Positions 3,920-6,603 of a stretch of DNA of 64,000 bases are shown piece after piece (within the stretch, counting starts at the first letter, position 1; each line of letters starts with the position of its first letter). The stretch lies in the sequence record MZ417521. One strand, written 5' to 3'. Origin of the DNA: Escherichia phage 132. The position numbers and the translations under genes were made by a program. The notes under the pieces were generated by a model. It saw only the letters and a program-made list of their open reading frames with translations. It ran no database searches and was not told the origin of the DNA.

Positions 3920-4198
3920 TCAAAATGTAATTTCTAACCAATCACCATCACGTTGGTCACTATTGACTTTAAAGCTAAATCCTTCTTTTCTCAGCCAATC
4001 ACCAATTTCTTCAGTAATCAATTTATCGCGAGCAGTGCAATAATAACTAAAATATGTTTTACCTTGTTCAGCTGCTTTATTAGCAAGTTCCGAAAAATCT
4101 TTAATAAAACACTCTAGCTTAAACTGTTTGCTTTTAAGTGCTTTTTCACGTAATTGATTAGCAAAAGATTCATTTTCATAAAGATCATACTGTTCCAT
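3920..4198 (-). CDS. Hypothetical protein at the T4 24.2 position
   Basis: 92-aa ORF between rnlB and hoc. Confidence 0.65.
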   Translation of the reverse strand: MEQYDLYENESFANQLREKALKSKQFKLECFIKDFSELANKAAEQGKTYFSYYCTARDKLITEEIGDWLRKEGFSFKVNSDQRDGDWLEITF

Positions 4199-4400
4199 TT
4201 TTCACCTTCTTATTAATATGTCTTTTTCTATAGACAACTTTTTCTCGAGTCTCAAATTTATTCTTAGCAGTCATAGCTCGAGCCCATAATACAGCCACTT
4301 CCTTTGCCTGTAAGTTCAATTCACGAGCAATTTCAATGAATGACTTTCCAGACTCATGGAGTGTAAACACCACAACCTCAGTTCTCATAATCAATCTCAT
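4185..4400 (-). CDS. Hypothetical small basic protein with putative helix-turn-helix, at the T4 24.3 position
   Basis: 71-aa ORF; SGKSFIEIARELNLQAKEV looks like an HTH. Confidence 0.6.
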   Translation of the reverse strand: MRLIMRTEVVVFTLHESGKSFIEIARELNLQAKEVAVLWARAMTAKNKFETREKVVYRKRHINKKVKNGTV

Positions 4401-4488: not shown

Positions 4489-5913
4489 TTATGGATAGGT
4501 ATAGATGATACCAGTTTCTAAAGCAGTTTTATGAATGATGTATCCATTACGCGATTCTTGAACATCAACTTCTGGATAGTCTTTCATCATCTTCTGAAGA
4601 GTGTAACGATGCAAGTAGTATTTACTATCTGGATCTTCAGTTTTCCAATCTTTACCTTCTTCAGTCATTTTTTGGATTTCATCCATAACCCACCAACCGC
4701 ACCAGATATAAGCTGAGCTACGATGTGGAAGAGGATGAACATAAGGTAATTCACCTTCTGGTTCCGGAGCAACTTTATCAGTCACTTGAACTTGACCTGT
4801 GGCTTTAACTGTTTTACTATCATAGTCAGTTGCTGTAACGACAGCAGTAACTTCAATAGTTTGACTTCCAATAGATGAGGTATCAACAGTATATACGTTA
4901 GTTGACCCTTCCACAGGAGAAGAATCTTTCTTCCATGAGTAAGTAATTTGTGCTGCTTCAGGTGCGCCAGTAACATTAGCAGTAAATGTAGCCGAAGCAT
5001 CTTGCTGAACATTAATAGAAGGAGGAGTCAATGTAACCTGTGGATTCATTGTCTTCTTATTAACTGTCAATGATACTTCATTGGAAGTAACTTCCTTTTC
5101 ATTATAATTTTCTGCAGTTACTTGGGCTACGCATTTAATTCTTTTTACTCCACTTGTAGTTGGAGTATAGTTAAATGTAGAGTTAGTTTCTCCACCAACT
5201 TGTGAATCATCTACATACCACTGATACGTGGCAGACGCTCCATCAGGTTGAGAAGCTAAGGCAGCAGTAAATTGAACCGGGGTTCCAATTACTCCAGCAG
5301 CAGGACTATCAGGAGTTACTGCCAAGGTAGTTGTCTGCGTCTTTTTATTAACCGTCAATGATACTTCATTAGAAGTAACGCTCAGTGCATCATAATCTGT
5401 CGCAGTTACTTGAGCTACACACTTAATTTTTTTAACTCCGCTTGTAGTAGGAGTATAATTGAATGTAGCAGAAGTTGCTTCGCTCACAGGAGAACCGTCA
5501 ACGTACCATTGATACGTAGCAGATGCGCCCGATGGCTGTGAAGCTAAGGCAGCAGTAAATTCAACGGCTGTTCCGATTACTCCTTCTGGAGGACTATTAG
5601 GAGTTACAGCTAAGGTAGTTGTCTGTGTCTTATTTTGAACTGTGATAGTTGTACTAATTTCAGCTGTTTCAGCTTCAGCTTCAGCTTCTGGAACTGTATT
5701 TGTTGCAACCACTTTAATAGTCTTTTGACCAGCAGGTCCTTTTAATACATAATTAAAGGTTGCTTCAGCTCCATCCTGTGGAACATTATCTACACTCCAA
5801 GCATATGTAATAGGTCCATCTCCAGTTTGACCACTGGGTGTAGCAGTAAACTGCTTGGTTTCATCAATAACCCCTGTTGGTGTTTTAGGAGTTATATCAA
5901 CTGTAAAAGCCAT
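4489..5913 (-). CDS. hoc: Highly immunogenic outer capsid protein Hoc, long form with an extra Ig-like domain
   Basis: 474 aa; N- and C-termini match T4 Hoc (376 aa); internal ~96-aa unit duplicated. Confidence 0.9.
   Translation of the reverse strand: MAFTVDITPKTPTGVIDETKQFTATPSGQTGDGPITYAWSVDNVPQDGAEATFNYVLKGPAGQKTIKVVATNTVPEAEAEAETAEISTTITVQNKTQTTTLAVTPNSPPEGVIGTAVEFTAALASQPSGASATYQWYVDGSPVSEATSATFNYTPTTSGVKKIKCVAQVTATDYDALSVTSNEVSLTVNKKTQTTTLAVTPDSPAAGVIGTPVQFTAALASQPDGASATYQWYVDDSQVGGETNSTFNYTPTTSGVKRIKCVAQVTAENYNEKEVTSNEVSLTVNKKTMNPQVTLTPPSINVQQDASATFTANVTGAPEAAQITYSWKKDSSPVEGSTNVYTVDTSSIGSQTIEVTAVVTATDYDSKTVKATGQVQVTDKVAPEPEGELPYVHPLPHRSSAYIWCGWWVMDEIQKMTEEGKDWKTEDPDSKYYLHRYTLQKMMKDYPEVDVQESRNGYIIHKTALETGIIYTYP
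5058..5633 (-). repeat. Tandem ~288-bp in-frame duplication inside hoc (two copies of one Ig-like domain)
   Basis: Protein repeat NKKTQTTTLAVTP..ASQP.GASATYQWYVD..SGVK.IKCVAQVTA..EVSLTV occurs twice; nucleotide repeat visible near 5050-5090 and 5335-5380. Confidence 0.8.
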
Positions 5914-5922
5914 AAGTTATCC

Positions 5923-6603
5923 TTATTTTAATGTTACGAAAGAAGAGTTACGCGTTTCACGAATTAGAACTGATCCGTCACGGTTAATGTAGTAAATTAA
6001 GCTAAATAAAGTTTGGTGTGCCGACGCATGTTCAAAACTAGTTGGGTGAGATTTCCAATCCGGAGTTTCAGCAATCCACTGGTAAATCCACCAAGGAACA
6101 GTGCAGAATCCTGGATTTTTTCCAATCAGCTGAAGATTCGGACTAAAGTTTTCCGGAAGAGTAAATACAGACGGCTTTTCAGATTCAATAATCTCAGCTA
6201 CAGCCTGTTCGAATTTTTCTTCAACAAAAGGAGTATCTTCAATCAAAACATCGGTATTTTCAGGAATTTTATCCGTTTCTACTACTTCAATTTTAATGTC
6301 AGATTTAACCGGAGAATCAATCAGAAGTGCTGCTTCTGGATTGACTTCTTCATCGTCATATTTTAATCCCTCTGCGGCATCAGCAGCATCAATTAAGTCT
6401 TTAATAGATAACCCATCAGTCTCTGGCATAGGTTCACTAGCGAGCTTCTGGAGGGCTTCTTCAATATCAATAACGATATTATCAAAAGATTTATTCTTTT
6501 TGACCTTTATACCAAACTGTTCAGCATATTCAGCTAATTTAGCTTTAGCTTCTTTATTATCATCAAGAGCCTTCAGCTCTGCAATATAATCTTTATCTAT
6601 CAT
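5923..6603 (-). CDS. inh: Inhibitor of prohead protease (Inh)
   Basis: 226 aa, at the T4 inh position between hoc and uvsW. Confidence 0.8.
   Translation of the reverse strand: MIDKDYIAELKALDDNKEAKAKLAEYAEQFGIKVKKNKSFDNIVIDIEEALQKLASEPMPETDGLSIKDLIDAADAAEGLKYDDEEVNPEAALLIDSPVKSDIKIEVVETDKIPENTDVLIEDTPFVEEKFEQAVAEIIESEKPSVFTLPENFSPNLQLIGKNPGFCTVPWWIYQWIAETPDWKSHPTSFEHASAHQTLFSLIYYINRDGSVLIRETRNSSFVTLK

Follow-up and report, generated by a model that had tools for sequence, protein, structure and literature searches.

Escherichia phage 132 carries a hoc gene of a common T4-type class, with the second Ig-like domain in two tandem, diverged copies

In phage T4, each gp23 hexamer has one Hoc monomer at its centre, which makes 155 per capsid, and Hoc is dispensable for infection; the conserved C-terminal domain of the protein binds the capsid, and an Ig-like fibre of ~180 Å projects from it (PMC10385173). 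Hoc is known to adhere to the glycans of mucin and is specific for fucosylated ones (PMC9271167, PMC11150434). Of the segment N180-T185 (NEVSLT) examined in PNJ-9 Hoc, the residues S183, L184 and T185 were reported as necessary for fucose-dependent binding to MUC2 (PMC11853027), and in PNJ-6 Hoc mapping placed the MUC2 site in D1 and not in D2 (PMC11150434). The homologues of Hoc have strings of 1-10 Ig domains (PMC10385173), the number of Ig domains varies among T4-like phages (PMC11150434; PMC13435897), and the Hoc of Klebsiella phage PMBT63 has an additional Ig domain relative to T4 (PMC13435897). The Hoc proteins of RB49 (3SHS, 3 Ig), PMBT63 (one Ig beyond T4) and Serratia phage Muldoon (10 Ig) have the same design as the Hoc of Escherichia phage 132 described here, that is, a C-terminal anchor with a variable Ig string, but they are distant in sequence and their extra domains are not the D2 unit of Tequatrovirus. 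A search of the literature, in which the coverage of subscription journals was limited and absence is not proof, found no paper on a tandem array of this D2 unit.

The sequence analysed was a 64,000-nt window of Escherichia phage 132 (MZ417521), and all the coordinates given are positions in this window, the first 24 kb of which is ~97% identical to many Tequatrovirus genomes. The coding sequence at 4489..5913 on the (-) strand, including the stop codon at 4489-4491, encodes a protein of 474 aa and was recognised as hoc from the list of open reading frames, the match to T4 Hoc (PDB 5vf3_Z, 376 aa; E = 1e-218) and the match to PHROG 1149 ‘Hoc-like head decoration’ (E = 8e-139). It is placed between inh, encoding the inhibitor of prohead protease (5923..6603, (-); PHROG 1051, E = 2.5e-102), on its upstream side and a gene 24.3 homologue (4185..4400, (-); PHROG 1566) on its downstream side, with all three on the same strand. 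The product of the 24.3 homologue is identical to a 71-aa ORF at the gene 24.3 locus of T6, and a 24.2 homologue (PHROG 2416) is also found downstream of hoc. This order, which is a feature of the Hoc family, matches that of PP01, T4 and RB51; in T4 it is the same gene at the same inh-24.3 locus. On every feature testable in the sequence the phage 132 gene is a member of the Hoc family, and the naming of the gene as hoc in the first-pass annotation was borne out by the T4 Hoc structure entry, the PHROG and the position next to inh and 24.3. Furthermore, the protein aligned to T4 Hoc in two stretches, residues 1-108 with T4 1-106 and residues 191-474 with T4 93-376 (E = 2e-171 for the second), which is the signature of an internal duplication.

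In the repeat search, 5051-5338 and 5339-5626 came out as two copies of a 288-nt unit, spaced by 288 and 78% identical, and Tandem Repeats Finder reported the region 5051-5631 with period 288, 2.0 copies and a score of 738. The copies are identical at 226 of 288 positions, for which the chance probability of at least this many matches is ~2e-76 (expected per-base match 0.26), and the next best lag within hoc gave only 129/288. A tandem in-frame repeat had been placed earlier at 5058-5633; it is the same repeat shifted in phase by 7 nt and with the same 226/288 identity. When set in codon phase, unit A (5338..5625, (-)) covers aa 97-192 and encodes D2a, an Ig-like domain whose loop is of the ‘SPVSEATSA’ type, and unit B (5050..5337, (-)) covers aa 193-288 and encodes D2b, also Ig-like, whose loop is of the ‘SQVGGETNS’ type. 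The repeat is in frame, and 76 of the 96 residues are identical between the units. The differences between A and B amount to 62 nt and 20 aa; third codon positions account for 37 of the 62, and 16 of the 20 amino acid differences fall in the A-B, B-C, 139-149 and 171-176 loops of the AlphaFold2 (AF2) model. In a set of 166 units taken from 120 proteins, variation was likewise highest in the columns of these loops. The first-pass annotation had spoken of a handful of surface-type positions, which falls short of the number of the changes.

The unit edges fall in N-K-(K)-T linkers between the AF2 domains, and the linker DNA is alike on both sides of the unit (GTTCAAAATAAGACA/CAG upstream and GTTAATAAGAAGACA/ATG downstream), and, judged from its sequence, it could plausibly have served in the unequal exchange that first made the array. 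The repeat has the characters of a tandem domain array, as the unit is one structural domain, is arranged head-to-tail and varies in copy number among the relatives. The possibility of a template and variable repeat pair of a DGR was checked and rejected, as the copies differ without adenine bias (A at 16 of the 62 positions in unit A and at 26 in unit B) and the 62 differences are of all types, contrary to the expectation for a DGR that they would lie almost exclusively at template-adenine positions. A search for further coding in the repeat, covering the remaining frames and the complementary strand, gave only short mechanical ORFs (61 and 76 aa) that overlap hoc and are otherwise unsupported.

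The architecture of phage 132 Hoc was confirmed as D1, D2a, D2b, D3 and a T4-type capsid-binding domain. The D1 domain with its linker (aa 1-96; 5626..5913, (-)) aligns to T4 Hoc 1-106, and in the AF2 model, for which an alignment of 50 sequences was the input, its strands span residues 4-93 with a pLDDT of ~84-92 except in the loop 71-80. The model contains seven strands in D2a between residues 101 and 189 (pLDDT 90-96) and places the strands of D2b at 196-285 (pLDDT 91-95). The D3 domain (aa 289-378; 4780..5049, (-)) has Pfam Ig_3 and I-set matches at 291-376, AF2 strands at 292-378 and its counterpart in T4 Hoc from residue 191 on. The domain at the C-terminus that binds the capsid (aa 379-474; 4492..4779, (-)) is near-identical to T4 Hoc 281-376 and almost invariant among the 50 homologues, PHROG 21694 matches its aa 410-474, and the AF2 model is poor for this part (pLDDT < 50). 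Ahead of it, the model shows four consecutive seven-strand beta-sandwich domains with pLDDT ~90. The Pfam families PKD, Ig_3, Ig_2 and I-set all scored above their cut-offs, as is found for an N-terminal string of Ig domains, and the top Foldseek matches were four-Ig strings (Dscam, ICAM-5), with RB49 Hoc (3shs) also matched. Each of the repeat units is confidently modelled as one complete Ig-like beta-sandwich.

The phage 132 protein exceeds T4 Hoc by 98 aa (474 against 376), which is one 96-aa unit and 2 aa. The earlier claim of a further Ig-like domain, in frame, as the source of the extra length therefore stands, the domain being of D2 type, with the 2 aa of Glu-Ala to be added to it. These 2 aa come from the run (GAAGCT)3 at 5668..5688 on the (-) strand (Tandem Repeats Finder: period 6, 3.5 copies, 100% match), which encodes the Glu-Ala run of PEAEAEAET in a D1 loop. 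Phage 132 has three GAAGCT units, as against two in the 472-aa alleles of SP1, PP01, moskry and pSs-1, and the third unit accounts for the 2 aa beyond 472. The loop reads SEGGPETAE in T4 and PEAEAEAETAE in phage 132. The Hoc of Sf21 is also of 474 aa, but its extra residues are different (PESEAEPET), and in every phage record that matched the region 5640-5715, the match was shorter than the region or contained the 6-nt gap or substitutions.

A megablast search with hoc returned 678 phage records, and the full-length matches of 1419 nt include SP1 (98.6%), G2133, NBG2, PP01 (97.2%) and many others. When 60 records were sampled at even steps down a ranking of 679 matching phage records, the four-Ig span (~1620 nt with flanks) was found in 22 and the T4 span (~1331 nt) in 29. 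Among the best 120 protein database hits, the Hoc length was 376 aa in 73, 472 aa in 29 and 567-570 aa in nine. A scan of IMG/VR for nucleotide relatives gave 21 loci, most of them distant, and GenBank phage records were taken in its place. The four-Ig architecture is already present in PP01, SP1, NBG2, Sf21, pSs-1, moskry and many other phages, and the six named here have two D2-type units in the same order as phage 132. SP1 is identical to phage 132 in unit A (100%), nearly so in unit B (99%) and 98.6% identical over the gene, for which PP01 shows 97.2%. The Hoc of SP1, PP01, NBG2, pSs-1 and moskry has 472 aa against 474 aa in phage 132, the difference being the extra GAAGCT; in pSs-1 the partner of the A unit is of C type, and the GenBank record of moskry, a Mosigvirus, annotates a repeat_region under hoc.

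A longer form with three units and five Ig domains also exists. In a tblastn search with a 570-aa member (P0003), a three-unit hoc of 1704-1710 nt was found at ≥85% identity in at least 15 records, including UGKSEcP1/2, EC101, YUEEL01 and T4_ev151, and seven more records have a similar span at 82-84% identity, so that probably about 22 records have three copies. The Hoc of UGKSEcP1/2, EC101, YUEEL01 and T4_ev151 (568-570 aa) is built from the same 96-aa unit type, with A and B as the first two units and a third of C type with the ‘SLVDGETTTT’ loop. A hoc longer than this three-unit form was not seen in this clade by tblastn. The duplication is not special to phage 132, being shared with about a third of the sampled records and exceeded in the five-Ig form. 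T2 and T6 had been suggested as possible four-Ig references, which they are not; the T2 hoc is broken into three ORF fragments and has one unit, and the T6 hoc is an unannotated stretch of 1132 nt with a +1 frameshift and one hybrid unit.

To relate the units to one another, 25 of them, belonging to 13 genes, were compared in a matrix of nucleotide identities, in which they group by their position in the array and not by genome. Type A comprises the first positions, type B the second positions together with the single units of RB51, T4 and IME339, and type C the third positions together with the second unit of pSs-1. The phage 132 unit A is 83-100% identical to first-position units elsewhere, and unit B is 95% identical to the RB51 unit and 91% to the D2 of T4, which makes it the copy nearest to T4 domain 2; T4 Hoc has one D2 unit (a mosaic, mostly of B type) where phage 132 has two. 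In the proteins, 37 of 38 first units have ‘SPV.EA’ in the C-C' loop, where the later units have ‘SQV..GE’ or ‘SLVDGE’, and the other segments are mosaic. On this grouping, the A and B types are old paralogues common to many phages. Only three diagnostic amino acid positions are strongly position-specific, all of them in one loop, and the protein-level counts of chimeras are weak for this reason; the usable evidence is nucleotide painting at the sites that separate units A and B of phage 132. By such painting, the single unit of T4_ev240 follows A at all the informative sites as far as about nt 213, except for one that agrees with neither copy, and follows B from about nt 225 on, as would be expected if the two copies of an A-B array had undergone homologous recombination. 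The T6 unit is also A and then B, with the switch at a poly-A run near nt 190-200, exactly at the extra base of the record. Most of the T4 unit is of B type, with nt 225-250 (near the F-G loop) as a patch of A type, and the second unit of moskry is built likewise, which points to gene conversion or inter-phage exchange. The closest backbone relative of phage 132, SF2-1 (97.2% over 24 kb), has a single-unit hoc, and the hoc allele class is thus decoupled from the genome backbone.

Short reads can lead to mis-assembly of tandem repeats of ~300 nt, and a single D2 unit wrongly expanded to two was therefore considered. This origin has next to no probability; with 62 of 288 nt different the copies are neither collapsible nor expandable duplicates, the reading frame is intact, the same two units occur in the same order in SP1 and PP01 (95-100%) and in other phages (83-93%), and the four-Ig length is found in about a third of the sampled records. 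The suspicion of an assembly artefact raised with the first-pass annotation is excluded by the copy differences and by the recurrence of this architecture in independent genomes. The gain of a domain in a recent duplication, private to the phage 132 lineage, would agree with the single D2 unit in the reference T4 Hoc, with the one unit each of T2 and T6 and with the single unit of SF2-1. The divergence of the copies is against it, as A and B of phage 132 differ with dS 0.79, dN 0.137 and dN/dS 0.17, whereas dS between orthologous units of phage 132 and other phages is 0-0.67; in addition, the A-type and B-type units form separate groups across genomes, Mosigvirus included, and the hoc allele is 98.6% identical to that of SP1. 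With a dS of ~0.8 and the orthology of both unit types across genomes, the duplication is neither recent nor private, and such a gain is very improbable. It is also unlikely, to a somewhat lesser degree, that one of the copies is a decaying and non-functional relic, leaving in effect a three-Ig Hoc with a spacer. The A units are somewhat more diverged than the B units (higher dS and dN against phage 132 in moskry and Sf21), and the mapping of the PNJ-6 site outside D2 would fit such a relic; on the other side, dN/dS between the units is 0.09-0.27 in the eight genomes with arrays (dS 0.55-1.3), all 166 units examined are exactly 96 aa long without stops or indels, the pLDDT is 90-96 in both units of the phage 132 model, and both have kept the core strands and the NEVSLT strand. 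On these substitution ratios, both the copies are under purifying selection. The gene is very probably a normal, functional Tequatrovirus hoc of the common class that has D2 as two tandem, diverged copies. The four-Ig hoc is an old, intact and common allele class, found in roughly a third of the sampled T4-type phage records, and it is an ordinary variant for these reasons.

How the array of this common class arose was considered in two ways. One unit may have been duplicated inside a single gene, with later divergence of the copies. Alternatively, unequal or illegitimate recombination could have joined already diverged A and B alleles of co-infecting phages at the N-K-(K)-T linker. Single-unit genes of either loop type do exist (18 A-type and 54 B- or C-type among 82), some of them of the same type throughout; similar linker DNA flanks the unit, with GTTCAAAATAAGACA upstream and GTTAATAAGAAGACA downstream; mixed infection leads to frequent recombination in T4-type phages (PMC9271167), and the hoc alleles are decoupled from the backbone. 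However, the loss of a copy from an array would be just as likely to leave single-unit genes of pure A or pure B type, and the strict A, B, C order across genomes fits one old array as well or better, so that we regard this fusion of alleles as possible but rather doubtful. In a wider proposal, which we put forward only tentatively, the D2 region of hoc in Tequatrovirus and Mosigvirus would be a recombination-driven cassette array of 1-3 units (A, B, C) that is shuffled, converted and collapsed, tuning the fibre length and the glycan-binding valency to the animal-gut niche, and the Hoc of T4 and T6 with its three Ig domains would be a derived mosaic or a collapsed form and not the ancestor. 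Within this proposal the copy-number variation and the chimeras are observed, and both an adaptive role of the tuning and a direction of change are conjecture. The phage 132 gene is ordinary tandem-domain copy-number variation in a phage surface protein.

The consequences for the virion can be outlined from T4. The Hoc of phage 132 would anchor like T4 Hoc, through its conserved C-terminal domain at the gp23 hexamer, with the Ig string pointing outward, and the fourth Ig domain would then lengthen the ~18-nm fibre by roughly 4-4.5 nm. That the fibre is longer can reasonably be expected from the four beta-sandwich domains modelled by AF2 with pLDDT ~90. Two D2-type surfaces with different loops would be displayed, a second NEVSLT strand included, and the extra D2 surface may alter the reach or the avidity in mucus adherence. 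By its numbering, the NEVSLT segment of PNJ-9 corresponds to the last strand of the D2 unit, and it is present in both units of phage 132, at aa 182-187 and 278-283. This motif is a sequence correlate of a putative binding of (fucosylated) mucin glycans by phage 132 Hoc, and a longer fibre with a doubled putative mucin-binding site is what the comparison suggests. The PNJ-9 mutations sit in a beta-strand, and the loss of binding could reflect misfolding and not a binding site. If the site lies in D1 as mapped in PNJ-6, the extra D2 might serve mainly as a spacer. No experiment on any four-Ig Hoc was found in the literature.

The four-Ig hoc is already known in the sense that the gene has been deposited many times, in hundreds of genomes, as Hoc, PKD-domain protein or capsid protein, and its discovery value is little. 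The finer picture of three paralogue types in one to three copies, with chimeric single units like those of T6 and T4, may be unpublished and is the one aspect that is mildly novel. Hoc is both a mucus-adherence protein and a display platform, and the work based on T4 assumes three Ig domains; about one-third of the sampled relatives have four, therapeutic candidates and the O157 phage PP01 among them. The fourth Ig domain could affect the retention in mucus, the immunogenic surface and the geometry of Hoc display in these phages, and the series of one-, two- and three-unit genes is a natural set for the effects of fibre length and valency on adherence.

The hoc gene (window 4489–5913, minus strand) encodes a Hoc of 474 aa, whereas the four-Ig Hoc of the phages SP1, PP01, moskry and pSs-1 has 472 aa. 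A perfect hexanucleotide repeat, (GAAGCT)3, was mapped on the hoc strand at window 5668–5688 (aa ~75–83), where it encodes the Glu-Ala run of PEAEAEAET in a loop of D1, the first domain. The closest hoc alleles, which are those of the same four phages, contain two GAAGCT units against three in the window, and none of the 50,697 phage records searched matched the 76-nt stretch around (GAAGCT)3 over its full length without a 6-nt gap or substitutions. From these sequence comparisons, the third unit looks like a private slippage expansion of 6 bp, and it is because of this unit that the protein has 474 and not 472 aa. In addition to the 288-nt lag of the D2 units, the gene showed weak self-similarity at a lag of 576 (129/288, 45% against 26% expected), which would fit a far more ancient paralogous relationship of Ig domains, namely between D2 and D3.

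Different combinations of the D2 unit types A, B and C, which cover mainly the first, second and third array positions, respectively, were found in other phages. The hoc of Shigella phage pSs-1 (locus L034) contains an A unit and a C-type unit without a B unit, which suggests its origin from an A-B-C array by loss of the middle unit. The Hoc protein P0043 (567 aa) reaches five Ig domains in another way: behind its one retained A-type unit lie two Ig domains of far greater divergence, and its D3 is divergent as well. Phage T6 (MH550421; L002 6709–7840) has an unannotated, frameshifted hoc with a sole D2 unit of chimeric A-to-B type, and its additional nucleotide coincides exactly with the crossover at the poly-A run (GTTAAAAAGAATT); the gene could be a true pseudogene, or the frameshift could come from a sequencing error in the homopolymer. 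The hoc of phage T2 (LC348380; L001 5608–6591) consists of three fragmentary ORFs (62, 117 and 150 aa), lacks an intact C-terminus and appears to be a pseudogene.

The same A-B type hoc of 472 aa was found, with ~89% nucleotide identity, in a phage of another genus, Mosigvirus moskry (MN850651; L029 401–1819), and therefore this allele class crosses the Tequatrovirus/Mosigvirus boundary. Furthermore, SF2-1, the closest backbone relative of the window (97.2% over 24 kb), carries the single-unit form of hoc, and thus the exchange of hoc alleles is not tied to the backbone of the genome.
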